DNA of 64,000 nucleotides, taken from NCBI GenBank assembly GCA_965222075.1, contig OZ244937.1, positions 928,001 through 992,000 on the forward strand, written 5' to 3'. Under the pieces are notes generated by a model that did not search any database, was not told the origin of the DNA, and saw only the letters and a program-made list of their open reading frames with translations. Every line of letters begins with the position of its first letter. Position 1 is the stretch's first letter. The stretch comes from Candidatus Latescibacterota bacterium. GTDB lineage: Bacteria; Latescibacterota; UBA2968; GCA-2709665. Below, piece by piece: positions 29,993 to 54,089 of the stretch. A program made the translations under genes and the position numbers.

Positions 29993-31233
29993 ATGAAAAC
30001 GTTTCATCACCCCATTGCCGCAGCGGCGGTTTTGGCCCTGTTCGTGGCCGGCTGTGGCAAAGACGATCCCATATCCCCAGAGGAAGACCATTACGAAGCC
30101 GAAGGCCTCGTGCTTATTGACTCGGGCAACCGATTTTTCCGGTATTTCCGGGGCGAAATCGACTCCGCGACGGCCGGGCGGACATCCTCGAGGTCCCTCA
30201 CGGGCAACTCACCCCCCACTGGAGCATCCGGTTCCTGGATGCGGACGGCAACGAAATGGCGCCCCCCAGCGGTGAAGGCACCAGCTTCACGTGGGTCATC
30301 GCCGACCCGTCGGTCGTGGAAGTTTTCCAGGATGAGGGCGATGAGGGCAAGTTTGACTTCCACCTGCGGGGCCTCGAAGAGGGGGAGACCACCATTGTGC
30401 TGCAGATCGCGCACGAAGGCCACGTGGACTTCCGCACGCAGCCCATTCCCGTGCATGTGGTAGAAGAGTTTGAGGCCGAGGGGCTCGTGCTTATCGACTC
30501 GGGCAACCGATTTTTCCGGTATTTCCGGGGCGAAATCGACTCCGACGACGGTCGGGCGGAGTACCTTGAAGCGCCGATTGGGCTGACCGCTCACTGGAGT
30601 GTCAAATTCCTGGACAGCCACGGTGATGAAATAGACCCACCCGACGATCCCGAATTCACCTTCGGCTGGACCATTGACGATCCGTCGGTCGTGGAAGTTT
30701 TCCAGGATGAGGGCGACGAGGGCAAGTTTGACTTCCACCTGCGGGGCCTCAAAGAGGGCGAAACCACCATCATGTTACAGGTCGACCACGAAGGCCACGT
30801 GGACTTCCGCACGCTGCCCATTCCCGTACATGTGGTGTCACAGGCCGGCCAACACGGCGAACCCGTGGGTCTGCGCCTCAAAGACGAAGACAGCGGTCAG
30901 GTGCTCGTCCAGGCATCCCGTGAGGGGAAGGGCGACTCCACTGGTGTTCTGGCGGTCGCCGTGGGCGATACCACCGACCATATCGCGACCGTTTTTTTCG
31001 ACGATCAAGACGTGGAATTCCAGCCTGAAGCACCGGACGAGACCCTGGGCATTGCAGTGGCGGACACATCGTTGCTCGGCATCGATCCGCCGGTGGCGCC
31101 CGACTACTGGGCTTTCAAACTCATCGGCAAAAAGGCCGGGACCACGACGATTACCCTGTCCATCGTGCACGATGGACAGGCCGAACACACATTCGTGCCG
31201 ATTTCGGTGGTGATCAGCGCGCAGTCGCAATAA
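29993..31233 (+). CDS. His/acidic lipoprotein with a duplicated domain (1-bp frameshift near 30167)
   Basis: Lipobox VAGC; two ~125-aa repeats (EAEGLVLIDSG...HEGHVDFRT); copy 1 lacks one base relative to copy 2. Confidence 0.7.
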
Positions 31234-33568: not shown

Positions 33569-34149
33569 GACAGTTGTCATGCGCCCTTTGGGGCACCCAT
33601 TAGGATGAAAATCGTTGCCACGTCTCGCCTCTGCGCTCCCCCCACCGCATCAGCCGTCGCCTGTCGGCTCGGCTTCTGCGACTCCCCCTCAAGGGGGGAG
33701 TAATAGGGGGCCGCTTTGCATGGGTGTGAAGTCCCCCTGGCGTCAAGCGAATTTCGAGGGCAAGACCTGCCTGCAGCGCGGTGCGCCGCGCAGGCAGGTG
33801 CCCTCGCTCCCAGGAGAGATCAAGGTCGCTACGCAGTGGTAGACAATACAAGTGGCGATATATGGTGGCCGGGGGGAAGGGGCTTTTCCGCGCGGTTCCG
33901 TCCAGCGCCTTCGCCCAGGAACGCCTGGAAGGTTCGCAGGGCAGAAGCTTCCGTTTCCACCCCAGGGGCTATTCGCGGAAAAGCAGCCCCCGCGGCGTTT
34001 GAGCGGCGCCCTTCTTTTTCGGCCTTTTTCTTGGGCGTGCAAGAAAAAGGCCATAAGTAAAAGAAAGCCTGTTTTCCAAGCACCCGCTTAAACCCAAGAA
34101 ACACAACAAGTTCCGTTGCAATATGAAAGCCTATTTTCTAAGCAGCTTC
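33566..34149. repeat. Composite MITE/REP-like element, copy 2
   Basis: Same modules as 8989-9400 plus nested palindromes (CTCCCCCTCAAGGGGGGAG; CCTGCCTGC..GCAGGCAGG). Confidence 0.75.
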
Positions 34150-39794: not shown

Positions 39795-40041
39795 GATGTA
39801 CTCCTTACGCAGGGTTGTCCTGCCGGTATTGCCTTAACCTTTTCGGCTTTCAACTTCTCCCAAGCGTCATCATTTTCGATAAATTCATTGAACACATCTT
39901 TAGCCGCTTGAGTGATCGGCGACCCGTGTCCAAAGGCCGACTGGGCCGGATCTGCTTTAACATTCGAGACGGCTCTCAGCCTGGGGTTTGACTTTGTGCG
40001 CGATTCCCGGGGTGGGGTGGTTGGGTTCTTGCGCCGCTTTC

Positions 40042-40097
40042 GGTTAACGTTTGGCAATAGGCCGACTGGGCCGGAGCGGGGTACGGACGTGTCAGGC
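40042..40097 (-). repeat. attC site (degenerate)
   Basis: GCCTGAC...GTTAACC directly downstream of the GNAT stop. Confidence 0.55.
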
Positions 40098-40109
40098 GAC
40101 GTGGCCCAC

Positions 40110-40796
40110 TCAGGGCTTACTGCTGTTGAGCTCTGTTAAGGACAACTGCTGGTTTGGGTTCTGATACAACCACATCTGCATGTTTTTCTTAACAGCGGCC
40201 CACTCACTGTCCAGTATTGAATACCAGGTAGTGTCCCTGTTTCGACCTTTTACGATCATATGCTGTCTGAAGATGCCTTCGAACCTGAAACCAAGACGTA
40301 TGGCCGCTGATCGAGAACGCTCATTCAGGGAATCGCACTTCCATTCGACCCGCCGGTATTTCAGGCGATCGAAGGCCTCACAAAGCATGAGATACGCGGC
40401 CTCCGTGTTTACGTTTGACCTCTGAACATCTGGCGAATACCAGATGTGTCCAAGTTCCAGTCGCAGCATATCCGAAGCGATGTTCAGAAAACTCACCATC
40501 CCAACGCGTCGCCTGGATTCGCGATGGTGGACAGTAAGGAAGAGCGGATCGTTTGACCTGGCCCCATCCTCAAGCCACCTTTGCATGCTGTGTATGCTTT
40601 CAAAAGGACCGTACCCCATGTAGGTCCATATCCACTCCTTCATATCCGAGCCGTGAGAACACGCGTAGAGTTCCCCGGCATCGGCCTGTGGGCTGACTGG
40701 CGACAGGGTAATGAACTCACCTTTGTAGTCCGTTCTTTGAGGCAAGTCAACATGGGCAATGGGTTTTACGAGATTTCCAAGAGGGAGAGACAACAT
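40110..40796 (-). CDS. GNAT acetyltransferase, RimJ/RimL family
   Basis: LELGHIWY, YRRVEWKCDSLNERS, FEGIFRQH, GRNRDT. Confidence 0.9.
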   Translation of the reverse strand: MLSLPLGNLVKPIAHVDLPQRTDYKGEFITLSPVSPQADAGELYACSHGSDMKEWIWTYMGYGPFESIHSMQRWLEDGARSNDPLFLTVHHRESRRRVGMVSFLNIASDMLRLELGHIWYSPDVQRSNVNTEAAYLMLCEAFDRLKYRRVEWKCDSLNERSRSAAIRLGFRFEGIFRQHMIVKGRNRDTTWYSILDSEWAAVKKNMQMWLYQNPNQQLSLTELNSSKP

Positions 40797-40870
40797 AGCA
40801 ATTCCTGATTGTGCAGGTTACCGTGGGATGAGAGCCTTTGGTACAGGACTCTTGATCCGTGGGCCATGTC

Positions 40871-40925
40871 GGCTAACGGTTTCGCCTTTGGATGACGTGA
40901 TACCGCGCTGCCTGATCTGTCAAAA
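40871..40925 (-). repeat. attC site (degenerate)
   Basis: TTTTGAC overlapping the stop codon ... GTTAGCC. Confidence 0.5.
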
Positions 40926-41615
40926 TTCAACGAAGTATTTCCCGTCTCGGACGTCGGCCTCTTTGGCCGTTCGCAGGACCACCTGGTTGCCCTCTTCGTT
41001 TGTTTCCTCGATCTTCCAGTTCAGGTTGGTCAAAAAGAATGACACTGCCCGCTTAATCCCGGGCCAGGTGTAGTCGTCCAGGATGATTATTCCGCCCTTG
41101 CGTACGAGATGCCCGAGATAGTACAGGTCCAGGAAGACTCTGTCGAAGCGGTGGTTGCCATCGACAAACCCGAGGTCGAAGCTCCGACCTTCCCCCAGAA
41201 ACTGCGGAAGCGCAATTTGGGATTCTACAGCGTGATACTCCACGAGCTGTCTGATCCCTGCCTCCTTGAGGACCTGCAGCCCGCAGTCGGCGAAGCGCCA
41301 TGTCTGATTGGGGTCGAGCACAACATGCCGTGCAGCATGGTTGCCGTTCAGAAGCAGGCCTTCACAGATGTGTAGTGCAGAAATTCCGTAACCCAGGCCG
41401 ATCTCGATGGTTCGCGTCGCGCTTTCGCGAGATACCCAGTTCCGGAGTGATTCGCATTCCCCGGGACTCACCGCAACGGGAAAGATACTATGCCTGGTGC
41501 CGTCAGAGGTCGCTACGACAGATCCGTCACGAACCAGTCGCTCGATTACCAGTCGCACCCGCTTGACCGCCGCGTCCCGATTCAATACGGTCTCCCTACT
41601 TCTCCGTGAACGCAA
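40920..41615 (-). CDS. Class I SAM-dependent methyltransferase (Methyltransf_24-like)
   Basis: EIGLGYGIS, FVDGNH, GGIIILDD. Confidence 0.85.
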   Translation of the reverse strand: MRSRRSRETVLNRDAAVKRVRLVIERLVRDGSVVATSDGTRHSIFPVAVSPGECESLRNWVSRESATRTIEIGLGYGISALHICEGLLLNGNHAARHVVLDPNQTWRFADCGLQVLKEAGIRQLVEYHAVESQIALPQFLGEGRSFDLGFVDGNHRFDRVFLDLYYLGHLVRKGGIIILDDYTWPGIKRAVSFFLTNLNWKIEETNEEGNQVVLRTAKEADVRDGKYFVEF

Positions 41616-41638
41616 AGAGGGGTTTCTGTCTCATTATG

Positions 41639-41862
41639 TCATGACTCCACCGTTTCGACTTCTACTTCTGTTTGGAAGTAAAGCCTGAGTCGGATCGGAA
41701 TATCCTCGTCAAGAAGCACTCGCATCCTGTGCTCTCAAGTGATCCAGTCCCTCAAGTGAAAGCTCGAGATACGATTCTATCTGCCAACGCTCGACCGTGG
41801 GATAATCCTGGAGAAACTCTTCGATGGAGTGCCCCCCTTTAAGATAACACACCAGGCTGTCT
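41639..41862 (-). pseudogene. Broken DUF433/DUF5615 TA pair (antitoxin 3' part plus toxin 5' part)
   Basis: GHSIEEFLQDYPTV followed by MRVLLDEDIPIRL..., which stops after 28 codons. Confidence 0.75.
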
Positions 41863-42114
41863 TTTCCACGGTTTGCGAACCCCGAGCTCGGCCGCTGAGC
41901 CTGCATCCTGAGTATGCGTTCGTTTCGACAAGCTCAACGAACCATCATTGAGCCTGAACCCTGAGCTTGAACCCTGAGCCTGAACCCTGAGCCTGAACCC
42001 TGAGCCTGTCGAAGGGTGTCGAAGGGTGTCGAAGGGTGTCGAAAGGGTGTCGAGGGGTTGCCGAAGGCGAGGCCGCCCCAGGCGGCGCAGCGAGCCGGGA
42101 GCACGCTGTTGTGT
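41863..42114 (-). repeat. attC site expanded by nested palindromic repeats
   Basis: R'' ACACAAC; loop contains (TGAGCYTGAACCC)x4 then (TGTCGAAGGG)x4; R' lost at the junction with DUF433. Confidence 0.75.
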
Positions 42115-42171
42115 GCTGTGTCAGCCTGGGGTGATGAGGTGCGGCCTTGCCACGGATGACAAGGCCGCTGT

Positions 42172-42348
42172 CTATTCAGGTTGATCTACATGTTCAACTC
42201 GCTTGGGAGGAAGGGAAGTAAACTGCCTTCCACTTGTTTTTTCTCGCTTTTTTAGATCCTTATAAATAGCCTGTAGATCATAGTTAAATTTCCTCGCATG
42301 TGCTTCGCGTATTTTCCTGACTTCTTCTACAATCGGATCTTTCCACAT
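42172..42348 (-). CDS. Small putative antitoxin of a PIN toxin
   Basis: MWKDPIVEEVRKIRE...FNYDL family; paralog at 44035. Confidence 0.7.
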   Translation of the reverse strand: MWKDPIVEEVRKIREAHARKFNYDLQAIYKDLKKREKTSGRQFTSLPPKRVEHVDQPE

Positions 42349-42352
42349 ATCA

Positions 42353-42640
42353 TCATTTCTCCAATAATTCTTCAGGTGTACAGATAATCGTTGGCTCATA
42401 CCCTTTGGTCCGACAGATCTGCTCAATTTTGCTCCGCATCGCTGCATTAGCCAGATGACTGCAATTCCACGTCAGCAGATAATCCATGCCATTGATTACA
42501 GCCGTAGCGATATGGATCGCATCTTCAGCAGCCTTCTGAGGAAGAGGACCTTTGTCTACAAGCTCATTGGCAAGAGATAAGCCTTCTTCGGTTACTTCCA
42601 GCAATTCGACTGTTTCCAATACTGCCAATCGTCTCTGACT
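42353..42640 (-). pseudogene. PIN-domain toxin, 5'-truncated
   Basis: DAIHIA...DYLLTWNC.HLAN...ICTPEEL; N-terminal YIETS motif missing. Confidence 0.75.
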
Positions 42641-42641
42641 C

Positions 42642-42884
42642 ATTACTCTGGCCAACTCTCTTGACTTCCAAGAAAATTTTCGGACGTCCCGTGCTATCGC
42701 AGAGAGCGTAGTCAACTCGTCCTGACTCCACAGGATATTCGGGAGCCACCACCGAGGTATCGGATACAGGCCAGTCAAGCGCCTGTAACACGGGCAGTAC
42801 GATGCCCTGAGATACTGAGGCCTCGTTCGTGAATTTTCCGGATTTGAGTGAAACCCGAATTCGATCAACAGTTTCTCGTATCAT
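42642..42884 (-). pseudogene. HSDR_N-like restriction endonuclease fragment
   Basis: NEASV...LPVLQALDW...PEY...GRVDYAL...FLEVKR PD-(D/E)xK motif; truncated. Confidence 0.7.
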
Positions 42885-42949
42885 CAGTCTGTCTCCTCTG
42901 CGGTCCAAGACGGCCTCTTCATCCACTTCGTGTTGTTCGGTTGCGCCTA

Positions 42950-43090
42950 AGATTACGTCTGCGACGGCTTTCGGTCCGCCGGAGGCGGTTGGCGCGGCGT
43001 TTGTGCCTCTCAGCAAGCGACGTGACAAAGGAAGCTGTGCCCGAAGGATCGAAGGAGCACAGCGACTGAAACGCAGACGCGGTGTTAAAT
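42950..43090 (-). repeat. attC site (long)
   Basis: ATTTAAC-ACCGCGTCTGCG...CGCAGAC-GTAATCT; left arm nearly identical to 54090-54180. Confidence 0.7.
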
Positions 43091-43368
43091 GCTGGCAGCG
43101 TGGCCTTTAAGGGCCAACATACAGCGTACACCATAGGATGGTTGTTTTATTGCTCATCCGCTTCCTGTAAACGACTCACCGCTGCAACTGCGATATGGTA
43201 GGCATCCATTTCAGCTGTGCAATAGCGACCGGGAGCGTAGCCTGTTACAAGCCGGCTACTTGGCGCCCAAGCAGCGGCTCCGATCGACATCTTGTTCAGC
43301 GAGAATTCCAGCAACACAAAAGCCTACGAGAGTCCTCGGTGGTCCATCTGGAATCCATGACAATCCTC

Positions 43369-43902
43369 TCAGTCGAAAATTATGCTATACTGCATCACTC
43401 GATAGTCTTGCTCTTTTTCGTGTTCTTGCACAAGATGATTTGCCCATTCTTCGTTCGGAACGACGATACTCCCGGTCTCGGGGGCGAAGTCGAGATATTC
43501 GCATTGCACCCGCCACTCTCGCTCCCAAGTGAAATCGACAGGTTCCTCGGAGTCTGGTCGGTACAAAACATGGCGCCACTGGTGGGAGGCTGGTAACGAA
43601 TAATATTCTTCGTCACTTTCGTAGATTACAGGTCTGCCTCCCATAGCAAATATCCATGATTTGGAAAAAAGGATGCCAAACGGGCGGTACCTTGAGTAGG
43701 CGCGTTCATTGACGAGTCCCCCGTCCAGAAGTCCGATAGGTGCTTCTGAGAAGCACACACAAGGATGCTGACCTTTGGTCATTCTGCTACCTGCAAGCAG
43801 CCGGCGCTCACCAATGATCTTCTGTAAGGTCTCGAACGCCTGCTGATTTGATTCGCCGGAAGTAAAGTGGATGAGATAGGGCGACATGTCTAGACGTGCC
43901 AA
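43369..43902 (-). CDS. AbiGi-like / ART-fold protein (cassette)
   Basis: LIHFT, CVCFSEAP, FGILFSK, GGRPVIY, WEREWR. Confidence 0.6.
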   Translation of the reverse strand: MARLDMSPYLIHFTSGESNQQAFETLQKIIGERRLLAGSRMTKGQHPCVCFSEAPIGLLDGGLVNERAYSRYRPFGILFSKSWIFAMGGRPVIYESDEEYYSLPASHQWRHVLYRPDSEEPVDFTWEREWRVQCEYLDFAPETGSIVVPNEEWANHLVQEHEKEQDYRVMQYSIIFD

Positions 43903-43945
43903 ATTCTGAACCTCCTACTTCTTTCCCCTTGAAACTCCGTATGCA

Positions 43946-44020
43946 GTTCCCGCCACTTGCGAACCCGCGGGGTGGGTTGTCGAAAGCCAGGGCGCGATAG
44001 CGACGTAGCGCTACTGTAGG
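43946..44020 (-). repeat. Eroded attC site
   Basis: Body nearly identical to 44715-44805 (GCGATAGCGACGTAGCGC; GTTCCCGCCA.TTGCGAAC). Confidence 0.6.
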
Positions 44021-44034
44021 CTGAGAAGGTGGGG

Positions 44035-44217
44035 TTACGTGGCTTCGGGCTCTTCGTTGACAGTCCGTCTCTGCGAACGTGCCCGGTCCACGACTCTGCG
44101 GGCATGTTCACGCTCTTTTTCACGGATCATGGCGCCCAAACGGTTCACGTCATAATCGTGCTCGCGAGCAATATCCTCCTTGATCTTCCACAAGGCGGCT
44201 ATGACTTCATCCTTCAT
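44035..44217 (-). CDS. Putative antitoxin
   Basis: MKDEVIAALWKIKEDIAREHDYDV; overlaps the PIN gene end. Confidence 0.65.
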   Translation of the reverse strand: MKDEVIAALWKIKEDIAREHDYDVNRLGAMIREKEREHARRVVDRARSQRRTVNEEPEAT

Positions 44218-44704
44218 CGGGCAGGCCTCCTACCATCTCCTGGGGAGTGCAGATCTCCGGACAGGGATACCCATGCTCAGTACAAAGTGCTCGAACCCGT
44301 GGCTTGATCAGAGCATTGTCGATGTGCTTGAAGTTCCAGGTGAGAAGATAATCGACGGCGTGCACGACCGATAGTGCGATGTGGAACGCGTCATCTGCTG
44401 CCTCAATGGGTAGCGGACCAGGGTGGACGAGCCTGCCAGCGAACTCGATGACCGGGTCCGACACAGCCAGTAAGGGTATGCCCTCGAGATTCGCCATTCT
44501 GCGTTCTGCCGCTTCCTGATCGCCACGACTGGCTTCTTCAAGCACCAAGGCCGAAGTGCAAAGATCGAAATCCTGGCGCTGGTGGTTCCACCACGACACC
44601 GTCACGTCTTGCCAGGCCGCTACCAACAGGCTCTGCGATGGGCGCGCTGTAAGGTAACTCACTATCGATGTTTCGATGTAGACCGACGGCATAGGATGAG
44701 ACAC
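44207..44704 (-). CDS. PIN-domain (VapC-like) toxin
   Basis: VYIETSIVSYL, DAFHIA, DYLLTWNFKHIDN, ICTPQE. Confidence 0.88.
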   Translation of the reverse strand: MSHPMPSVYIETSIVSYLTARPSQSLLVAAWQDVTVSWWNHQRQDFDLCTSALVLEEASRGDQEAAERRMANLEGIPLLAVSDPVIEFAGRLVHPGPLPIEAADDAFHIALSVVHAVDYLLTWNFKHIDNALIKPRVRALCTEHGYPCPEICTPQEMVGGLPDEG

Positions 44705-44714
44705 CCCTAATTCA

Positions 44715-44805
44715 GTCTAAGTTCCCGCCATTTGCGAACTACGCAACGCGGGTTGCTGACAGGCCAGGGAGCGATAGCGACGTAGCGCAAGTGGACGTGT
44801 TATGT
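44715..44805 (-). repeat. attC site
   Basis: ACATAAC..CCACTTGCG...CGCAAATGG..TTAGAC (the G of R' is missing). Confidence 0.7.
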
Positions 44806-44868
44806 AGCTCCTTCAGGACACAGGGGCGTGCGCGCTGGCCCCACCTGATTCGCGCTTTTTCAAACAGG

Positions 44869-45267
44869 TCACTCCGCGAACGTTTCCTCGCCCCTTGCCT
44901 TCTGTTTCTGCCTTATCTCTGCGATTTCTTCGTCTGTCAGACTTTCTCTGTCCGTTACGATCGTCTGTTCGATGAGTTCCAGCTTCAATTCCCGGTTGGT
45001 CAGCCACTCCCAGCGAGCGGCATTTGCCGGGTGGGGATGTGGATGCACATCACGAGGCCCCACCTCATCGGAAACGACATAGAGATAACCTGGTGTGACG
45101 CCGTTATGCTTCACCTCACCTCCGTCGGACATAGAGACAAGTGAGGGCCTGTGAGAGAACGCTTTCGCCACATTTCTGTTCTGTGTGATCGAACTTCCGA
45201 CCCGAAGTTTCGTCAGTTCCTGCTGAGAGCCATGGTACCACGTGAGACTATAGTCGCAATCCGGCAT
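44869..45267 (-). CDS. Small protein with Arr-like ADP-ribosyltransferase signature
   Basis: WYHGS, SITQN..AKAF, GYLYVV, WEWLT. Confidence 0.5.
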   Translation of the reverse strand: MPDCDYSLTWYHGSQQELTKLRVGSSITQNRNVAKAFSHRPSLVSMSDGGEVKHNGVTPGYLYVVSDEVGPRDVHPHPHPANAARWEWLTNRELKLELIEQTIVTDRESLTDEEIAEIRQKQKARGEETFAE

Positions 45268-45388
45268 CAGTAACCTCCGGTTTGCGAACCCCGAGCTCGT
45301 CCGCTGAGCCTGAACCCTGAGCCTGTCGAAGGGTGTCGAAGCGTGTCGAGGGGTTGCCGAAGGCGAGGCCGCCCCAGGCGGCGCAGCA
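45268..45388 (-). repeat. attC remnant with two nested palindromes
   Basis: R' GTTACTG; body identical in type to 41863-42114; R'' lost at the hicA junction. Confidence 0.7.
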
Positions 45389-45451
45389 AAAACCCGCCTT
45401 TTCTAAAGCTCGCACTGCATTCAAATGATTGACACCTGATATTTTCGGCAT
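45389..45451 (-). pseudogene. hicA: HicA toxin, 5' fragment
   Basis: MPKISGVNHLNAVRALEKAGF, then cut. Confidence 0.7.
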
Positions 45452-45452
45452 C

Positions 45453-45650
45453 CTATACCGTCAACTCGATCTCTCGTACTTCTACGTCATCCAACAGATT
45501 GTCAACGACTTCAAGATACTCACGTATTGCCGTCTCGATGTTTGCAATCGCTTCATCTTCCGTGTCCCCTTGCGACCAGCACCCTGGCAAGCCAGGCACC
45601 GAAACGCTATAGCCTTCTTCGGATTTGTGAAGAGCGATTTTATACCTCAT
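45453..45650 (-). CDS. hicB: HicB-family antitoxin
   Basis: GYSVSVPGLPGCWSQGDTEDEAIANI. Confidence 0.88.
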   Translation of the reverse strand: MRYKIALHKSEEGYSVSVPGLPGCWSQGDTEDEAIANIETAIREYLEVVDNLLDDVEVREIELTV

Positions 45651-45674
45651 CAAAACCTCCTTGCGGTTGTTCAT

Positions 45675-46442
45675 TCACGTGTTTGATGACAGCCTCTCCT
45701 GGCTCTTTTTCAACAGGAAGCCCGCGTACCGTCGATCCCGACCATAGGTTGCACGGTACTCAATCTTGAACCCAGCCTTCGTCAGTTCCTCTCTATATCC
45801 CTTCAGGCTCCGCGCACGCCCAAGTAGAAATATCTTTTTGCCTTTTACATCCCTCCACTGGTTTCCCTGGCACTTCTGAAACGAAATTCCAGAAGTGGTG
45901 GTGCCCGTCAGCCTGCAAAATTCATCGAATGAGGAAATCGGACCTTCACAGGCGTCCTCGTCACGCGCACCAAAGAGGATGAAGTATCCTTTGCCCTGCA
46001 GGACTCGTCTAACATTCCTCAAATAGACTTCTCTGTGAGCGTCGAGAACCAGCATATTAAAGCAATAGCAGTCGATAACGATTTGGAACCTGGTGGTCGG
46101 GAAAGTGTGAAGATCCAACACATTCTCTACCTCGAATCTTGCATCTACACCACTTTCAGCAGCTCGTTGTCTGGCTCGTTCGATGGCTGCCTCGGAGATA
46201 TCGATACCCAGATACTGATATCCAAGCCCTGCCAGAAAGAGGCCGGTCGTGCCGTCCCCACATCCCAGGTCCAAAATCTTAGTTTTCCGCGGAGAATGTG
46301 GGATTCTTCGAAGTAGTCCCTTGAGGCGCTGAAGATCCCTCTGCTGTGAGGCCCCTTCACCAAGGTACGTCAAGCCTTCTTTATAAGCGACTCGATAGTT
46401 GTGATCGTATGCCTTTAAGTATGATCGGTCATCAAACTTCAT
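45675..46442 (-). CDS. Class I SAM-dependent methyltransferase
   Basis: ILDLGCGDG, GIDISEAAI. Confidence 0.85.
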   Translation of the reverse strand: MKFDDRSYLKAYDHNYRVAYKEGLTYLGEGASQQRDLQRLKGLLRRIPHSPRKTKILDLGCGDGTTGLFLAGLGYQYLGIDISEAAIERARQRAAESGVDARFEVENVLDLHTFPTTRFQIVIDCYCFNMLVLDAHREVYLRNVRRVLQGKGYFILFGARDEDACEGPISSFDEFCRLTGTTTSGISFQKCQGNQWRDVKGKKIFLLGRARSLKGYREELTKAGFKIEYRATYGRDRRYAGFLLKKSQERLSSNT

Positions 46443-46466
46443 AGGTCAGTTGTCGCAGGTAATGGC

Positions 46467-46532
46467 GTTTAACGTTTTCGCCGTGCCCGAACCGCGTAGC
46501 GGTAAGGCGTCGGGGGCAGCGGTTGGTTATGC
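46467..46532 (-). repeat. attC site
   Basis: GCATAAC (contains the TAA stop of the upstream gene)...GTTAAAC with TGCCC/GGGCA stem. Confidence 0.85.
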
Positions 46533-46847
46533 CCCAACTTGCACGAGACTGCGCGGTTGCAGCGAAGCAAGGGTCTCTTCCAGCTTTGGCACGAGCGGCA
46601 TCAGGACGTGTAATTCGTTCGACTGCGCATGCAGGACCACGACCCCTATGGGGAGGGCGGATAGGTTCTGTTGGTACTGAAGATTCTTGTCGACGGTGAT
46701 AAACGCATCAAAATCCGACGCCGCAAGGCGGAGCACCTCACCGTTCTTGTTACCACCCCATCCCATCTCCACCACCGTCCGTACGCTATGGCTGGGTAGG
46801 GATTGCCGCAGGCGACGGGGAACCGATTCGTCAAGAAGTAGACGCAT
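46527..46847 (-). CDS. DUF5615 PIN-like toxin
   Basis: MRLLLDESV, GW..KNGE, FITVDKNL.YQQN. Confidence 0.85.
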   Translation of the reverse strand: MRLLLDESVPRRLRQSLPSHSVRTVVEMGWGGNKNGEVLRLAASDFDAFITVDKNLQYQQNLSALPIGVVVLHAQSNELHVLMPLVPKLEETLASLQPRSLVQVGA

Positions 46848-47049
46848 CGGCAAAAAGACGTGCTTTCGCGGCCTCGAGCACAGCTACTGCTGCCTCGCGG
46901 GAAACAGAGGGAAAGTCCTCCAAGAAATCCTCAAGCGAAGAGGTCCCCTCAAGGTAGTCGAATAGGTTCTGAACCGGTACGCGGGTCCCCTTGAAACATA
47001 GTGCCCCACTCATGATCTCCGAATCGCGGCTGATGTAAATAGCTTTCAT
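46831..47049 (-). CDS. DUF433 antitoxin
   Basis: IMSG..CFKGTRVPV, LEDFLEDFPSV. Confidence 0.88.
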   Translation of the reverse strand: MKAIYISRDSEIMSGALCFKGTRVPVQNLFDYLEGTSSLEDFLEDFPSVSREAAVAVLEAAKARLFADASTS

Positions 47050-47137
47050 TGATACCTCCAAACTCGAAATCCTATGCTGTATATCACCATCAAATACTGC
47101 AAGATCGGTCAGCCTATCACGACACTCGGATGTTGGC

Positions 47138-47192
47138 AATTAACGTCTCAAACTGCTGATTAGCAGTGCTTTGTAGGTTCTGGTTGTTCAGG
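47138..47192 (-). repeat. attC-like site (degenerate)
   Basis: CCTGAAC...GTTAATT with an ACTGCT/AGCAGT hairpin. Confidence 0.5.
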
Positions 47193-47218
47193 CAAGAGTA
47201 CCAAGCGTTCTAAAACCA

Positions 47219-47820
47219 TTAGCGACGGTATCTGTCCAACTCGGTTCTGACCTTGCGGAAAAGATCAGGCTGAATCTCCGGATGGGTCAGTTTCCCAGGA
47301 AGACTATCACCGAAAAAGGTTTCCTCTATCTCAGAATCGGGCATTTTTCCCAGTTTTTCTACGCGAGCATGAAACAGGAGGCCGCAGTTGGTTCGTCCAT
47401 CTTGTTCCACCGAGTACGCACAGATTCTCTTCAGTTCAAAAGCTTCTGCACCGGTCTCCTCACGTAGTTCCCTGGCGGCGGCCTCCGCTGGCTTTTCTCC
47501 AGGCTCAATGTGTCCGCCGGGAATCTCCCACGTATCTCTCTTTTTGTGTTTGCAGAAGATCCATTGGCCTTTGTACTCAGCAACAATCACCACGTATGTG
47601 AGATCGAGATCTGTGACAGTTCCCACTTCAGGAAATGAAACGACCACGCAGTTCCTCTGATCCAGTCCCTCAGGTGAAAGCTCGAGATACGATTCTATCT
47701 GCCAACGCTCGACCGTGGGATAATCCTGGAGAAACTCCTCAATGGAGTGCCCCCCTTTGAGATAACACACCAGGCTGTCTACCGGGACCCGCGTGCCGGC
47801 GAAGACCAGATCTCCGCTGT
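47219..47820 (-). pseudogene. Chimera: DUF433 fragment fused to a NUDIX hydrolase
   Basis: SGDLVFAGTRVPV...DYPTV in frame with WEIPGGHIEPGE..AAARELREETG. Confidence 0.7.
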
Positions 47821-47899
47821 GGCTGGGTGTTCTACATGCTCCCAAAATATAGACCGCCATTTCAAAATGTAAGGGTCCAGAAACCTGAAAAACGATTGC

Positions 47900-47988
47900 G
47901 TCTAACGTTCCCGCCACTTGCGAACCTGCCGCAGGCAGGTTGGGTCGGAGGCGCGTATGCGCCAGAGCCGTAGGTGCTCGTGTTAACT
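47900..47988 (-). repeat. attC site
   Basis: AGTTAAC...GTTCGCAAGTGGCGGGAAC-GTTAGAC. Confidence 0.75.
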
Positions 47989-48037
47989 GCGGTGCAGGAT
48001 CCTCCCTCCGCAAGGCCTGTCTATCCCAAAGTTGCTC

Positions 48038-48991
48038 TCACAGAACTTCCATAACCCGGTCAAGCCTGCTGTGAATTTCCTCTGTCTCCGCAAGTTCGAG
48101 ACTTGCCTCTGCCCAAGAAGGAAACCTGGGCCGCCGGAAGGCCTCAACGAGAGCATACAGAGGGGCCATTAAGTCGTCTAAGGTTTTCTCCCTGGGATCG
48201 GTCTCGCCGTACGCAGACCGGAATGCATCCGCAGCATCTGGTCCAAGAGAGCCGGTTACGTTTCTGCAATCGGAATACCGCAATCCCAGCCCCAGAAGGT
48301 GGTAGTCAAACACAACGGCCCTGATTGGCTTCTCGTTCCGAGACAATGCCAAATTGGTCCAATGGAAGTCATTGTAAGTTAGGGTCTCAGCAGAAGTCAT
48401 CGCGGCGTTCTTGATTCTGTCGATGTTGTCGGCAAGAGTGACCCACTTGGACTGATCTGAGCCCCGGACCTTCGAAGCCACCTCCAAGATCGACGCAGGA
48501 GTCAATTCGTCGATCTCACGCCACAAGAATGAAGGCCCGGGCTGACCCGTCCACAACCTCGAGTCCGTATCGTGAAGTGCTCGATACCAGGCCGCCAGAG
48601 CGACGCCAACCTCAGCTTTCCCGATATCGTCCTCACCGGCAGGCCTGAGATGTTTGCTGACTTCAAGATCTTCAAGAAGAAGTGCATCATTCGTCCTCGC
48701 AATGACGCGGAGGGTGGGAACCCCAAGATCCTTGAGGAGCGCATACGCCCCGACTTCTCTTGAGGCATCCGGATCTCCGAATACTTTCAGTATGTAAGAG
48801 GAACCTTCAAGAGCGATCCGGAAGAGGCGATTACCATGTCTCTCCTGGATTGGCTCGACCTTTTCCAGATGAGAGGTATCAAACCCCATCTTTGCCAGGG
48901 TAGCGCACACATCATCGGCGGATTCCGTCACATCGTCTCTCGCAGGGTTGAATGCTCTCTCATATATCAACTCAGAGGCAGACGGCTTCAA
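48038..48991 (-). CDS. Aminoglycoside/choline phosphotransferase-like kinase
   Basis: YILKVF, LLLEDL, YNDFHWTN, VFDY. Confidence 0.75.
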   Translation of the reverse strand: MKPSASELIYERAFNPARDDVTESADDVCATLAKMGFDTSHLEKVEPIQERHGNRLFRIALEGSSYILKVFGDPDASREVGAYALLKDLGVPTLRVIARTNDALLLEDLEVSKHLRPAGEDDIGKAEVGVALAAWYRALHDTDSRLWTGQPGPSFLWREIDELTPASILEVASKVRGSDQSKWVTLADNIDRIKNAAMTSAETLTYNDFHWTNLALSRNEKPIRAVVFDYHLLGLGLRYSDCRNVTGSLGPDAADAFRSAYGETDPREKTLDDLMAPLYALVEAFRRPRFPSWAEASLELAETEEIHSRLDRVMEVL

Positions 48992-48998
48992 AGAAAGA

Positions 48999-49830
48999 CT
49001 ATTGCCGACGTTTCAGCAGGAATATCATTTCGGGCGCCTCGGGTCCGATTGGTCTCCGGTCAAATGATCCAAACTCTTCCACACTCTCAAGACCCGCAAC
49101 GTAGAAAAGCAGTTTAAGGTGAGGATAAGTATAGGCGCTCATCTTCAACGGCTGTACTTCCTCAGATAGAACTTGATCACCCTCACACAACCGGAAGATA
49201 AATCTGCCCGAGAAATTCAGGTTGACCGGGTCGATCTCGTCCTTTACAAAGTAACGCCGGATCATCCGATCAGTCCCATCCTGCGCAGGCCACTCCAGGT
49301 CCAGGTATTCCTCGCCGATGCCCGATAGAAGTTTGTCGAAACGAGGATTAAACACATCAAAGGCGAGGATACCGCCATCTGCCAAATGTCTCCCCGCGTT
49401 CTTCAGGGCAGCCAGCTGGTCATCCGTGGTGTACATATGTTGCATGGGTCTGAATGGAATCATTACCAACGAAAACCGATCATTCAAATAATGGGTCCGG
49501 AAATCTCCCTCTATAACTCGTATTCTCCGTCTTACGCCTGCAGGTTCTTTGGCGAGCTTTGCGCGTAAGACCTCCAGCATCGAATGAGAAGCATCCAACC
49601 CTGTGACATCAATACCTTGTCTCGCCAGTGGCAAGGTAATTCGTCCGGTGCCGCAGCCCAATTCGAGGACAGGTCCAACCCTGTGACCACAGTGGCAAGG
49701 TAATTCGTCCGGTGCCGCAGCCCAACGTATTGGCCAGATCGAGATAGAAGTCCCTGTTCGTCAAATTGTCCTTGACGCCGTATGCAGCGTCGTAATGCTT
49801 CGCTCCCGAACTGTAGGGATCATCAATCAT
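48999..49830 (-). pseudogene. SAM-dependent methyltransferase disrupted by an internal duplication
   Basis: VLELGCGTGR motif; 36-bp segment duplicated (49626-49661, 49690-49725), shifting the frame. Confidence 0.75.
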
Positions 49831-50130
49831 TCTCTTCCCTCCATTCTATTCTTTTGCTCCTGGCCTTTTTCTTGCTCGCCCAGGAAAAAGGCCGCCTGTC
49901 TGCGTGCGTGAGACAGCACGCACAGGCAGGCGGGGGCTGCTTGCTCACCTTCCAGCAATCCTTGCTGCGCATCAACAATGAGTAGTGCTGTGACCGATTT
50001 CTTCATACAAACCCACCATATTCACCGGCTCTGGCACCCACGTTCCGGGAAATATGTCATTGGCCGACTTTCCCGACCATGCCGCTTTCAGGTAAGATTC
50101 TCGCCGTGGAGGTTGAAGGGTCCCTGTCCT

Positions 50131-50445
50131 TTATACTTCAAGTCCTATGTCATGTGGCTCAATCGCCTCCAGTTCCTGAGCTTCAGACCGGGTGGCATGA
50201 TACAGATCCCAGCGAAGTTGGAGATTCAGCCAAAACGCAGGAGACACATCGAAATATTTTGCCAGGCGCAGGGCTGTGCTCGGAGTAACACCACGTCGAC
50301 CGTTCACCAATTCGTTGACCCGCTGATAAGGAACATGAATGGCGGCAGCCAATTCGCGCTGCGTTAAACCCAAAGGATTTAGAAACTCCTCCAGCAGCAT
50401 CTCACCCGGATGAGTCGGAACACGATCTGTTGGTATACGTACCAT
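50131..50445 (-). CDS. higA: HigA-family antitoxin
   Basis: PTHPGEML.EEFL, QRVNELVNGRR, FWLNLQ; the preceding higB is reduced to MIQSFRRTGTE. Confidence 0.9.
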   Translation of the reverse strand: MVRIPTDRVPTHPGEMLLEEFLNPLGLTQRELAAAIHVPYQRVNELVNGRRGVTPSTALRLAKYFDVSPAFWLNLQLRWDLYHATRSEAQELEAIEPHDIGLEV

Positions 50446-50531
50446 GATCGACACCTCGGTGCCAGTACGCCGGAACGATTGAATCATAAGATTGATGTCG
50501 TGAACTGACCACGCACTCCGGCCACAATTTC

Positions 50532-50620
50532 AGGTAACGTTCCCGGCACCCACGAAACTGCCGCATGCAGGTTGAGCCGGAGGCGTGAAAACGCCGCAGC
50601 CGCAGCCCGTCGTGTCAGAT
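50532..50620 (-). repeat. attC site
   Basis: ATCTGAC...TTCGTGGGTGCCGGGAAC-GTTACCT. Confidence 0.7.
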
Positions 50621-50636
50621 GCTGTGGCGGAGCATG

Positions 50637-51356
50637 CTATCGCTTGAGGATTTGAGAAATATTTGTTACGATTCGATCAGGGACTACGTGAGTAGACTCC
50701 GGCAAGCCCTTGCCTTCAAAGTCTACCCAGATTGCGTAGATCCCAAGACGCTGGGGGGCTTCCACATCCCATTCGAGATTGTCTCCCGCCATCCAGCTAT
50801 CCGTTGGCGCAACGCCCAATTTCTTGAGGGCCTGGAGATACACACGTTCATCAGGTTTTCCTACCCCGAATTCACCCTCGACAAGGATGTATGAAAAAAA
50901 GTCCGACAGACCGAATTTGTCGATCTTCCGTCTCTGACCCTCCGCAGTCCCGTTTGTGATCATACCCAGGCGGACTCCCTTGTCCCCAAGTATACGGAGG
51001 GTCTCGATGGCTCCTGGAAACGGGGCAACCGTGTCTTCCCGCTCAGACGTGTATGCATCTGACACTTCGATCACCAGGTCAGGATCATCAATCCGTAGTT
51101 GACGAAAAGCTCTCGAGACGATCTCCCGCCGGGCACTCCGCAGGTTGAGACGTCCTCTTCGATGTCTATCCGCGTCTGCCCAAAACCAGGTACGGATGGC
51201 TTCTATGGCCTCGAAGAGCCCCTCAGGGGTTTGTCCGTCAACTCGTGGCGCAACCTTCCTGCATATTCTTTGCCAGGTCGGATCTGCGCTTTCGGAGAGC
51301 GCGAGAATCGTGTCGTCCAGGTCAAACAGGATGGCTTGCGGAAGATCGTTGTTCAT
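50637..51356 (-). CDS. HAD-family hydrolase
   Basis: FDLDDT, ITNG, GKP, GDNLEWD. Confidence 0.9.
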   Translation of the reverse strand: MNNDLPQAILFDLDDTILALSESADPTWQRICRKVAPRVDGQTPEGLFEAIEAIRTWFWADADRHRRGRLNLRSARREIVSRAFRQLRIDDPDLVIEVSDAYTSEREDTVAPFPGAIETLRILGDKGVRLGMITNGTAEGQRRKIDKFGLSDFFSYILVEGEFGVGKPDERVYLQALKKLGVAPTDSWMAGDNLEWDVEAPQRLGIYAIWVDFEGKGLPESTHVVPDRIVTNISQILKR

Positions 51357-51391
51357 TCACTATCTCCATCTGTCGAATGCTACGCCATTGT

Positions 51392-51458
51392 ATCTAACGT
51401 TCGCCGGTTTCCGAAGGCCAGGGCACGAATGTGCCGTAGTGGCAACAGGGTGTTACAC
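51392..51458 (-). repeat. attC site
   Basis: GTGTAAC...GTTAGAT. Confidence 0.75.
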
Positions 51459-51872
51459 GGTGGCTACTTTTTCCACCATAGATTCATCGTCCGTGTCGAT
51501 CCGCTTTCTTGACTCCGCTATTGTTTCAGCCCATACTGGCGGATGGCCTGCTCCACGGACTCACACCATGCTACAAGAGAACCCACTTCGGCTTCCGTTA
51601 GCTTTCGTGTGATCTGACAGCTGATGCCAGAGAGTCTTCAGATGCTCTATCAGGCTACCAAATAGCTTATTCACAAGCACTCCAGCTTTGGATTGAAGTG
51701 CGCCGACAACTTATGGTTCTGCGGCAAAAATCGATATATCCCAGTTTTTCGCCTTGAGATATGGCTTTAACGGAACGCCATCCCCGGTTCGCTGAGACTT
51801 GTATGACAAGGTCGCTCATTTCAACTGACTTGAGTTTGTGAAGGTCACTGCATGAGATTCAAGGGCAATTTC

Positions 51873-51936
51873 AGGTAACGTTTCCACGGTTTGCGAACCG
51901 CGAAGCGGCACGGAGTTGAGCAACCGGATGTTAACA
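51873..51936 (-). repeat. attC site
   Basis: TGTTAAC-ATCCGGTTGC...GCAAACCG..GTTACCT. Confidence 0.78.
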
Positions 51937-51973
51937 GATGGCAAGCTTGGGAGGCTGTTCCCAGGATCAGGAA

Positions 51974-52249
51974 TTACTTCAGGTTCAATTCTAATTCTTT
52001 ACCCAAAGCCTTGGCCGCTTTTCTCAGAGTAGACAGCTTAATGTCTCCAGCACGGTTTTCCAGGCGGGAAATCGCTGTTTTCTTTGTATGCATTAACCTG
52101 GCGAGTTGCTCCTGCGTTAAGCCGGCCTCCTCTCGGGCCTGACGCAGCAAAACGCCAAATTCGAATTCCTTATACCCTTCCTCAAATCCTTCTGAAAATT
52201 CAGGATCGATCTTCTTTCTTCGCGCAATATACTTTTCTACATCACTCAT
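51974..52249 (-). CDS. Xre/HTH antitoxin
   Basis: LRQAREEAGLTQEQLA...AISRLEN. Confidence 0.88.
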   Translation of the reverse strand: MSDVEKYIARRKKIDPEFSEGFEEGYKEFEFGVLLRQAREEAGLTQEQLARLMHTKKTAISRLENRAGDIKLSTLRKAAKALGKELELNLK

Positions 52250-52261
52250 GATGCACGCTCC

Positions 52262-52513
52262 TTAGAAGCTGTTTCCCTGGATGAAAAAGCCAAAAAAGCG
52301 ATAGGTTCCCTTCTGTGTTGGAATCCTGCATTCCCAAATATTCGCTGTTCCGGTCAGTTTCTTAAAGTAATTCGATGGAATCCGGTCGACCCTCTTTATG
52401 AGTCTGAAAACTCATAAGACCTTCTGCGATTCTTTGGGAGCCAACTTACCAAGGAAGCCCTCAACTGGACATCTTCGATCCTTTGTGCGATAGAATTCAA
52501 TATTTCTGGCCAT
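52262..52513 (-). pseudogene. RelE/Gp49-like toxin with a premature stop
   Basis: IEFYRTKD.RCPVE.FL...YFKKLTGT..IWECR; in-frame TGA at 52412-52414 and shortened C-terminus. Confidence 0.72.
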
Positions 52514-52643
52514 TTATAAAGATAACCTACGCGTTAACTTCAGGCAATAAAAAATATCGCTGAATCCGATCCTGATTTTTTGCTATCATCACTACAGCCA
52601 TACAGGGGCGAGAACAGCCCTTTTTGTCTTTCTGATCACCATT

Positions 52644-53375
52644 TCAATAAAGTCCATACCGCGAAGCCAGCCACCAGTCAGCGTATGGCATGCCACTTTC
52701 GAGTGCTGATTCAACCAGCAGATTGACATCTACAGGCACTCGACGTAACTCGATTCGAAGGCCACTATTCCCCCAACCGATAACCCCATATTCTGCCCAC
52801 GCGGGATGGCGGTCTGGGCCTGTCTGAGAAGTAGGCGCACCAACACTTCCCGGGTTTAGAATGGTTGTGTCTCCGATTCGTCGGACCATCTGCGTGTGCG
52901 TGTGACCCCCAGCCAAGACCGTGGCGTGAAAACCAGACAGAATCTGTTCCAGATCCTTTCGAGGAGTGGTGGAGACGATTCCTTCCTCATTCGACTTTGG
53001 AGAACCGTGATAGCAGAGAAGATCTGTGGTCGTATCAAGAGACATTTCGACAGTTGCTCGGAATGTACTCAGATAGTCGAGATCATCAGCTGAAAGCTGA
53101 CTGACACCCCAGAATTGAATCTCGCTGATCCGCTGAGCCTTCGCGTTCCTCACCTTATGAGGATGTGGATTTAGAAACCAAGCATCCATATTGCCCATGA
53201 CGACAGAACTGTTTAGCGTTTTCAATTGGGCAATGACCTCGCATGGCTGGGGACCGTCGGCGGCAATATCACCCAGGCAGACGACGTGATCAATGTGTTC
53301 TGTCTTGAGATCGCTCAAGACAGATTCCAAAGCAACTAAGTTTCCATGAATATCAGAGATGATGGCGATTCGCAT
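52644..53375 (-). CDS. Calcineurin-like metallophosphoesterase
   Basis: SDIHGN, LGD, GNMD, HGSP, GHTH, NPGSVG. Confidence 0.92.
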   Translation of the reverse strand: MRIAIISDIHGNLVALESVLSDLKTEHIDHVVCLGDIAADGPQPCEVIAQLKTLNSSVVMGNMDAWFLNPHPHKVRNAKAQRISEIQFWGVSQLSADDLDYLSTFRATVEMSLDTTTDLLCYHGSPKSNEEGIVSTTPRKDLEQILSGFHATVLAGGHTHTQMVRRIGDTTILNPGSVGAPTSQTGPDRHPAWAEYGVIGWGNSGLRIELRRVPVDVNLLVESALESGMPYADWWLASRYGLY

Positions 53376-53491
53376 GTAGCTCTGTGTCCCTTCTTTCGCA
53401 TTTCCTTGATCCACCCGGATCATTCCCCAATCTTCCTATGACGACACCAGAATGGCGACGTTCTGCTTCTGGGGCTCAGGCTGGCATTTCT

Positions 53492-53576
53492 TTGTAACGC
53501 CCTGCCGGTTTGCGAACCCCGAGCTTGTCGAGGGAAAGGCACGACGGCGCCGAGGCGTAACACCGCTGTGTTATGT
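53492..53576 (-). repeat. attC site with a single GAGCTTGTCGA palindrome
   Basis: ACATAAC...GGTTCGCAAACCGGCAGGGC-GTTACAA. Confidence 0.8.
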
Positions 53577-53591
53577 GAAGAGGCCATGTGC

Positions 53592-54023
53592 TCACGAAGA
53601 CCATTGCTTCTCTAAGCGAATCGGACTGCTATCGTGGTCCCCGCGGTCAAAAAATGCAACGATCTTGTATTTATTCTGGATCAAGAGGCGCAGCATATCA
53701 GGAAATTTATTTCTTGATTGGACAGCCACACCAGTGTAGTTGCTTTTTTGTGCCCACTGCTCGACATAATCGAGCAGGCGCTGCCCCACGCCCTGGCTTC
53801 TGTGGTTTGGATCAACACCGAAAAGATAGATATAGAAGTAGCCGCTCTCTTCACCATAACCGATGGCGAAAGCAATGACCGTGCTCCCTGTTTCGGCTAC
53901 AAAATTGGTAACTGACCTGTCCGAGATTCTGGCCCAATATTTGCCTGTCAGTTGGATCTCGGGGACCATATCCCTGCACTTTTTCCAGATTTCAGACGTT
54001 TCTGCCTGCCGGATACGTACCAA
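53592..54023 (-). CDS. GNAT acetyltransferase (cassette)
   Basis: GVDPNHRSQGVGQRLL acetyl-CoA-binding motif. Confidence 0.82.
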   Translation of the reverse strand: MVRIRQAETSEIWKKCRDMVPEIQLTGKYWARISDRSVTNFVAETGSTVIAFAIGYGEESGYFYIYLFGVDPNHRSQGVGQRLLDYVEQWAQKSNYTGVAVQSRNKFPDMLRLLIQNKYKIVAFFDRGDHDSSPIRLEKQWSS

Positions 54024-54089
54024 TAGCTACAAATCGCGCCGCAGGCGCGAATCCTCTGACAAGGGGTCAATATTTTTTCTCGACATTTC

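Follow-up and report, generated by a model that had tools for sequence, protein, structure and literature searches.

Nested 23-nt hairpins with a common GAGCYTGTCGA loop in attC-like sites and other repeats of a Candidatus Latescibacterota genome

The window, that is the whole stretch of 64 000 nt that was analysed (positions 928001-992000 of contig OZ244937.1), belongs to the one-contig genome of a Candidatus Latescibacterota bacterium (G000 below) and carries five attC-like sites (41843-53576; Table 1). Like integron attC sites these are imperfect palindromes, arrayed between short ORFs, with RYYYAAC-like and GTTRRRY-like ends. Four of them have the body GGTTTGCGAACC in common, which at 41843-42114 is conserved as GGTTTGCGAACC ... 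GGTTGCCGAAGGC, as in other sites of the same family, and the fifth, at about 47901, is related. The core and inverse-core ends are complete at 51874-51936 and 53493-53576 and weaker at 41843-42114 (GATAAC...GTTGTGT), and no clear R' is present at 45269-45395. The fold of 53490-53580 pairs both ends (z = -1.27). Across the genome, 17 of 28 regex matches had YTAAC(G) ... GTTRRRY ends as judged by eye, for example GTCTAAC...GTTATGT, and further clusters of attC-like sites were found at 3.41, 3.45-3.47, 3.53, 4.16 and 5.30 Mb. No attC model was found in Rfam (0 matches), and an Rfam scan of window positions 40000-56000 gave 0 matches. Elsewhere in the window, positions 30098-30836 are a tandem duplication with a period of 375 nt (2.0 copies, 80% matches).

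A search of G000 with the integron integrase profile TIGR02249 gave no match above the cut-off (best 93 versus 265 bits); the arrays are therefore CALIN-like. A 148-aa open frame, about 3 kb from an attC-like site (L004 1420-1866, minus strand, equivalent to about 5301031-5301477 of G000), is similar to the first half of the catalytic domain of tyrosine recombinases and scores 69.5 bits to the integron-integrase model over positions 87-176. This recombinase fragment may be an intI remnant.

Table 1. Features of the attC-like sites and hairpin arrays (window coordinates)
Feature	Coordinates	Strand	Details
attC-like site enlarged by nested array	41843..42114	+	~272 nt; GATAAC R''-like 41843-41848; GTTGTGT R'-like 42108-42114
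Three outer left halves	41880..41914	+	CCCC GAGCT 41880-41888; CGGC-CGCT-GAGCC 41889-41901; TGCA-TCCT-GAGTA 41902-41914
Inverted hairpin, same family	41918..41942	-	GTTCGTT-GAGCTTGTCGA-AACGAAC; loop match 41925-41935
Left halves	41943..42006	+	CATCATT GAGCC 41943-41954; 4 x TGAA-CCCT-GAGCY 41955-42006, 13 nt each
Sole intact 11-nt loop of long array, innermost	42002..42012	+	GAGCCTGTCGA
Right halves	42007..42057	+	TGTCGA-AGGG x3; TGTCGA-AAGGG; TGTCGA-GGGG; period 10, 5.9 copies
attC-like site with three-layer nest (45289-45353)	45269..45395	+	arms CCCC/GGGG, CGCT/AGCG, CCCT/AGGG; R' end degenerate
attC-like site, plain tip	47901..47990 (ends approximate)	+	AACCTGCC-GCA-GGCAGGTT; genome 975903
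attC-like site, plain GAA-triloop tip, no unit	51874..51936	+	
attC-like site with one unit	53493..53576	+	CCCC-GAGCTTGTCGA-GGG at 53517-53534

The body of these sites ends in a hairpin AACC...GGTT with a variable tip, and the hairpin nests of the window lie at the tip of the first side-hairpin. A sequence-only reading of the window had quoted a graded series of these tips, and every string that it quoted was found. At 51888-51905 the tip is plain (AACCGC-GAA-GCGG) and contains no unit, and at 53517-53534 a single unit is present (CCCC-GAGCTTGTCGA-GGG), whose loop belongs to the type GAGCYTGTCGA. Hairpins with this loop are nested in three layers at 45289-45353, where the left halves read, in order, CCCC GAGCT, CGTC-CGCT GAGCC and TGAA-CCCT GAGCC, and the right halves TGTCGA AGGG, TGTCGA AGCG and TGTCGA GGGG; many layers are nested at 41880-42057. 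The motif GAGCYTGTCGA occurs four times in the window, where 0.04 occurrences are expected, and four were reached in 0 of 100 shuffles.

On the left side of the long array (41880-42057), CCCC, CGGC-CGCT and TGCA-TCCT are followed by an inverted hairpin, by CATCATT GAGCC and by four copies of TGAACCCTGAGCY; its right halves are three copies of TGTCGAAGGG, one of TGTCGAAAGGG and one of TGTCGAGGGG. Read on the plus strand, the inverted hairpin (41918-41942) is GTTCGTT-TCGACAAGCTC-AACGAAC. TRF described the array as a 13-mer in 4.6 copies (95% matches) adjoining a 10-mer in 5.9 copies. Among the left halves at 41880-41914 only CCCC GAGCT is matched on the right side, by GGGG at 42054-42057. CGCT, TCCT and CATT have no counterpart in the array, and a single deletion within the TGTCGA repeats probably removed all three right halves. 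Four further attC sites of G000 have the CGGC-CGCT unit in complete form, with AGCG. From their sequences, the outer layers CCCC, CGCT, TCCT and CATT and the inverted unit would fit records of different insertions; the four identical inner layers (41955-42047) could equally result from repeated insertion or, once two copies existed, from slippage. The module that contains the inverted hairpin recurs in tandem, with a 53-nt period, at genome positions 3410436-3410542. In that attC-like site (G000 3410377-3410600) three head-to-tail copies of the 53-nt module are present, each with an inverted hairpin between two left halves, and the window contains one copy (41902-41954).

By our own reading of the matches, this attC family comprises about 20 sites in G000. 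The tip is short in ten of them, in most cases a GNA triloop (for example AACCCGC-GCA-GCGGGTT), and ten have the loop GAGCYTGTCGA, one of them as the variant GAGCTTGCCGA. Four of the ten loop-bearing sites carry one layer, two carry two layers, two carry three layers and two are complex, namely the array at window 41880-42057 and the minus-strand array at genome position 3410377. The same layer order, CCCC, then CGCT, then CCCT, was found at two unlinked attC sites. The one-unit form of the attC site was matched at 11 loci in nine other genomes titled Candidatus Latescibacterota; none of the sites seen there was nested, and the two-layer attC of the G000 type gave 0 matches in other genomes. 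In the sites kept across these nine genomes (L372-L382) the CCCC/GGGG stem is tipped by GAA, GAGCTTGTCGA, GAGCTCGGCGA or GAGCTTGGCAA, and the 11-nt loop resembles a GNA triloop with eight extra bases.

The unit of nesting was defined on 280 cores with a fully paired 4-nt stem, drawn from G000 and the loci fetched until then, by tracing GAG[CT] to the left and [TG]CGA to the right in steps of the spacings observed. The numbers of left and right halves go together across these cores, as a tabulation suggested by the sequence-only reading was meant to reveal: (1,1) was found 203 times, (2,2) 20 times, (3,3) six times, and (4,4), (5,5) and (6,7) once each. By a rough calculation only about 0.5 (2,2) cases are expected from chance motif matches, compared with the 20 observed. 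The off-diagonal classes (2,1), (1,2) and (3,2) had 16, 10 and 8 members, the first two being near the chance-match level. The arms also pair in nested order: of 60 outer layers, 23 pair at 4/4 positions, 20 at 3/4 and 17 less well, and 23 fully paired layers were reached in 0 of 2000 shuffles. That the arms are matched, layer by layer, is thus borne out beyond the window. The clearest nest, L171 on a Candidatus Binatia chromosome, has six layers (CCCT/AGGG, CCTT/AAGG, TGGT/ACCA, TCCT/AGGA, CCTT/ACGG and CCCT/AGGG) and one orphan right half, and a second locus of that chromosome, L164, has three layers.

The proposal of a discrete 23-nt module also held, since exactly 23 nt are added by 38 of the 43 nested layers whose arms are paired at 3/4 positions or better. 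The added unit begins with a 4-nt leader, after which two stem arms of 4 nt each enclose the 11-nt loop; removing the unit in silico restores the empty site exactly. The 23-nt step is kept across at least 17 different junction types. Head-to-tail hairpin arrays are less regular: their periods range from 20 to 26 nt, which ruled out a strict 23-nt period in them. In 137 cores the 5' leader is non-random (TTCG 33, GTCA 18, CTCA 14, CGGT 13; also CCTG and CTTG), unlike the 3' side, which is diverse, its commonest tetramer being found seven times.

Insertion had been placed at a fixed point, GAGCY^TGTCGA, and this did not survive the wider comparison. The (left, right) spacings of the layers were (12,11) in 12 cases, (13,10) in 11 and (15,8) in 15, which correspond to splits after loop bases 4, 5 and 7 at about equal frequency, and a split after base 1 was seen as well, in nine distinct nests. 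The bases found 5' of the inserted unit are accordingly G, GAGC, GAGCY or GAGCYTG, and since the split position is variable there is no single cleavage site. A universal cut position obtained by re-phasing was rejected, as it fails at the GAGCT|CGGC and GAGCTTG|CGGT junctions, and none of the leader-to-split pairing rules considered (parallel, antiparallel, target duplication) fitted the junction outputs inspected. Eight of the nine base-1 splits involve the TGCT-stem unit (seven AGCA, one AGTA), in hosts with CATT, CCCT or CGTT stems; unit type goes with split position, independently of the host stem. At one locus of genome G006 (L055), two 23-mers lie side by side in a single loop, one behind base 1 and the other behind base 7.

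A comparison of empty and filled orthologous sites in sister species, also suggested by the sequence-only reading, revealed 23-nt differences in four cases. At locus L049 the same flanks enclose 269 nt in G006 and 200 nt in G016, and the difference of 69 nt is made of three blocks of 23 nt, each in a loop. Block 1 is a CGGT-CCCT unit after GAGCTTG of a CCCT hairpin; blocks 2 and 3 follow loop bases 1 and 7 of an inverted CATT hairpin. In G015 and G011 the whole element is absent from this locus. At a second locus, GTTCGTT-GAGCTTGTCGA-AACG in G013 corresponds to G[23 nt]AGCTCGTCGA in G006, where a TGCT unit follows base 1. None of the four blocks, whether gained or lost, is flanked by direct repeats, and there is no target duplication; the same four blocks, with neither duplication nor junction repeats, led us to reject a MITE of a DDE transposon. 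The loci compared also included one complex difference of 32 nt. In addition, whole non-coding carriers of 190-300 nt with a central hairpin doublet have a patchy presence at six orthologous intergenic sites (L224, L226, L227, L225 and counterparts in G010, G013, G015, G016 and G017), with a distribution among genomes that varies between loci, which suggests that the carriers themselves were recently mobile.

The module had been regarded as specialised to attC loops. It is not: it was found in other repeats, in more than 15 phyla among the matches listed and in phage contigs, and it nests equally in repeats that are not attC. In G000 a non-attC repeat of about 110 nt carries the same unit with the same +23-nt step, in two layers at 486399, 1349715 and 2836690 and in one at 3405123. 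This repeat, CACTCCCCCC-TTGA-GGGGGGAGT ... GGCTGATGCGGTGGGGGG, is common to G000 (the four positions above, 2836690 being on the minus strand) and the sister genus (with L014, L016, L020, L022 and L052 among its copies); it has the hairpin at its central tip, and its arms pair with GA/AG mismatches, as judged from the sequence, which would suit a structured nucleic acid. It adjoins, for example at G000 486612-486823, a repeat family of 180-210 nt, one of the other dispersed repeats in which G000 is rich, with more than 50 BLAST matches at 80-93% identity, copies of which lie in the window near 9146-9303 and 33665-34052. All 15 genomes of the sister genus contain 29-75 copies of the 15-mer version of the hairpin, versus 0-1 for a reversed control, and G006 has 163 copies of the 11-mer versus 15 for the control. 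Many of the G006 copies form convergent inverted doublets, 44-96 bp apart, inside the 190-300-nt carriers.

The 19-mer CCCTGAGCYTGTCGAAGGG was matched in at least 120 genome records and at least 120 viral contigs; the records listed included Bacteroidota, Actinomycetota, Cyanobacteria, Chloroflexota, Acidobacteriota, many Pseudomonadota, CPR groups, NC10 and others. The 23-mer CGGTCCCTGAGCYTGTCGAAGGG is free-standing in Bacteroidales and Actinomycetota records and nested in G006. Unlike the plain hairpin, nesting is restricted to certain lineages: nest signatures (GAGCYTGTCGA N4-7 TCGA) numbered 9-42 per genome in all 15 sister-genus genomes and nine in G000 (control 0-1), and, for the 14 commonest unit classes, nested cores made up at least 30 of 64 in G006 and 8 of 15 in G000, versus 3 of 198 in diverse genomes and 1 of 176 in viral contigs. 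In up to 16 of the 120 viral contigs L242-L361 the hairpin lies between HK97-type portal-, protease- and capsid-like genes, and these contigs may be prophages of repeat-rich hosts.

The sequence-only reading had seen no mobilising enzyme in the window, and none was found there. It had proposed a gene flanked by the motif, of RAYT/HUH or nuclease type; RAYT proved to be no consistent correlate, and surveys of the neighbours of 120 genome and 120 viral loci yielded no nuclease gene flanked by the motif. The Y1/RAYT profile PF01797 had no match in G006 or G016, which contain about 70 hairpin copies each, and weak or partial matches only in G013 and G020. The motif is not found around the two Y1 genes of G000. 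A RAYT was therefore rejected as mobiliser of the hairpin, PF01797 not tracking the repeat and the G000 Y1 copies having no motif nearby. The sole divergent hairpin pair of G006 (72452/73386) encloses no credible ORF. All-against-all clustering of the ORFs near the 120 genome loci gave only common families, the largest cluster having seven loci and the three largest being ABC ATPase, response regulator and acyl-CoA synthetase; near the 120 viral loci only phage head genes were linked, in clusters of up to 16 loci that, from reading their sequences, look like HK97-type capsid, portal and protease. Literature searches with the loop 11-mers on both strands and with the encoded peptides gave nothing relevant to this hairpin repeat among the matches listed, and a search on nested repeats in the variable terminal structure of attC found only general attC papers.

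Among described systems, the very small mobile repeats (SDR) known from cyanobacteria come nearest. SDRs, reportedly described by Elhai et al. in 2008 (Genome Res 18:1484), are said to be dispersed non-coding modules of about 21-27 nt that insert precisely at a short palindromic target. A passage of a later paper describes SDR5 as inserted precisely into HIP1. By this definition and that passage, all SDR-like features are found in the 23-nt module, which is shorter than 30 nt, dispersed and non-coding, has a short specific target (here the 11-nt loop) and is present or absent at orthologous sites (seen here four times). It differs in that its target is the loop of an element of its own kind, with up to six self-nested layers, and in that the loop motif is spread over many phyla and phage contigs, whereas SDRs belong to one cyanobacterial group.

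REP, BIME and REPIN sequences are also short dispersed intergenic hairpins, often in convergent inverted doublets (here 44-96 bp apart, in G006). In both, four nucleotides at the 5' foot are conserved and changes in the stem are compensatory. REPs have a conserved tag, GTAG or CGTC, at the foot of the hairpin and short loops, according to PMC3733652, in which the word 'nested' has 0 occurrences. Here the loop is the invariant part, several leaders are used and there is no GTAG or CGTC foot tag; a REP/REPIN system with a RAYT was ruled out, as no RAYT was detected in G006 or G016 and no foot tag is conserved. IS200/IS605 elements, of which IS608 is the model, have two different ends with one hairpin each and a fixed target of 4-5 nt. 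The module resembles them and PATEs in outline, by the lack of target duplication, by its specific orientation and by a hairpin and a 4-nt 5' stretch as recognised features, but a single hairpin of 23 nt is too small for both ends. An IS200/IS605-derived PATE was ruled out because there is one hairpin, the split varies and PF01797 does not track the repeat. In integron attC sites the nests are cargo in the variable part; they do not define attC and are equally found outside it. Compared with the literature found, the GAGCYTGTCGA loop and its cross-phylum spread, the constant 23-nt step, the six-deep self-nesting and the presence in attC tips are apparently new.

The best explanation of these observations, which we favour by a little over even chances, is a precise insertion of the 23-nt hairpin into resident loops, followed by slippage among the split halves. 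The tip of the first attC side-hairpin carries a member of a very widespread hairpin family, in which the 4-bp stem is free in sequence and the loop, GAGCYTGTCGA, is invariant. Complete 23-nt copies would, in this and a few other lineages, have entered a resident hairpin at its intact loop, in the orientation of that hairpin and with no target duplication, leaving the host loop whole except for the split. As only the innermost loop is intact, each new copy would land inside the last one, and an array would be a layered record with the oldest layer outermost. The split halves form tandem direct repeats (12-15 nt on the left, 8-11 nt on the right) that would later gain or lose copies independently through slippage; orphan halves would arise in this way, as might the four identical layers in the centre (41955-42047). 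Insertion itself would proceed on single-stranded DNA, as an exact reaction directed by a structure or loop, and the factor responsible is presumably encoded elsewhere in the genome; a single-strand, hairpin-directed enzyme of the kind known from IS200/IS605 and RAYT would be the best analogy for this activity. Homology-driven copying between paralogs probably spreads nested states, and it does not account for the TGCT unit in hosts with different stems or for the origin of nests.

A stronger version is that the 23-nt hairpin is a mobile element in its own right, one of the smallest known, shared by bacteria of many phyla and their phages; a trans-acting activity would place it precisely into single-stranded GAGCYTGTCGA loops, its own included, and arrays would record insertions from outside to inside. 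We put this forward tentatively, as somewhat more doubtful than even. If it is so, attC sites would be natural landing pads because of the time they spend as single-stranded hairpins.

Homology copying could suffice with no dedicated insertion activity, if rare illegitimate nests were spread by gene conversion or by single-strand annealing at the fork. The hairpins do sit in multi-copy carriers (attC, the 110-nt repeat, the patchy 190-300-nt elements), and near-identical units are found in attC sites with two and three layers. Three of the four orthologous differences are nested states that recur at paralogous copies in G006, where the L049 states recur at other loci, so that copying could have made three of the four. 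We nevertheless consider this account unlikely, because the TGCT unit follows base 1 in three host stems, where the homology on the left side is a single base, because nests made of different units are found in host hairpins that are unrelated and in separate phyla, because the 23-nt quantum is kept over at least 17 junction types, and because the first origin of each nest is left without explanation.

Replication slippage on both arms, with compensatory mutation and selection for a balanced hairpin, is improbable as the main process. As in minisatellites or VNTRs, both arms are tandem repeats, changes of single halves occur, and slippage would readily give the four identical inner layers and the off-diagonal classes listed above. 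One such change was seen between species: G015 is without one 12-nt left half that is present in G006 and G016, which from the sequence is a slippage event between CCCTGAGC repeats. The evidence for slippage is confined to such secondary events (the 12-nt loss) and possibly the four inner layers. Unlike a minisatellite, the nests have paired counts, matched arms in nested order and dissimilar layers; neighbouring layers that are unlike in leader and stem (CGGC-CGCT versus TGAA-CCCT; also L171) are impossible by copying of a neighbour. The 23-nt differences between species are contiguous, span both arms and have no flanking direct repeats, so that their removal by slippage would need two separate events, of 15 + 8 or 13 + 10 nt. 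Layers with different leaders and stems, together with the lack of flanking repeats, are not explained by simple slippage, and we therefore ruled out a tandem repeat made mainly in this way, in agreement with the sequence-only reading. Its further claim, that repeated insertion gave the A^n B^n layout, stands as far as the paired left and right counts of the 280 cores are concerned; unequal counts arise from later slippage, and the inner four layers could be slippage too. Nor does folding energy offer a benefit on which selection could act: the nests fold no more stably than shuffled versions of them (z = 0.27 and -0.01), and with z near 0 folding gives no independent support.

These z-scores, and the lack of an Rfam match, also make it quite improbable that the nests are a selected structural element, a functional rod of RNA or DNA with repeated internal loops between short helices, for example a platform for protein binding or a device that tunes how attC folds, built up because additional layers are useful. 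The loop is invariant while the stems co-vary, the loop could form G.A/A.G pairs and a G-C pair closing a pentaloop, and attC papers discuss the length of the variable terminal structure. However, the same nests are found on either strand, within attC sites as well as outside them, the number of layers varies between orthologous loci of sister species, and the same attC family is nest-free in nine other genomes.

Confirmation with reads was partial: a contig of run X17 reproduced 45181-45330 with 0 differences, whereas in Logan contigs from four runs of three studies the flanks had 0 differences and the pieces listed end at 41701 and resume at 42062, leaving the long array unbridged by short-read contigs, with minor length variants at 41994 and 42031. 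An assembly artefact of a low-complexity repeat, to which these breaks and variants might point, is nevertheless extremely improbable, because the architecture recurs at at least eight other loci of the one-contig G000, in all 15 sister-genus genomes (9-42 versus 0-1 for the control) and in separate phyla, and because the X17 contig reproduces the first part of the three-layer nest.

Insertion of the 23-mer as a unit, if it occurs, would set a lower size bound for mobile DNA. Such insertion, if true, points to a new reaction that recognises a hairpin loop, opens it and reseals it with no scar, with a possible use for loop-directed insertion into single-stranded DNA. The hairpin, whose translations we take to be LSLSKG and FDKLR, explains a recurrent class of spurious small ORFs in annotation. 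The layered arrays provide a built-in relative time scale of insertions. In the attC-like sites of this organism, a foreign module can lengthen the variable part from about 60-85 nt to about 270 nt, and this longer variable part may alter attC folding and cassette mobility.
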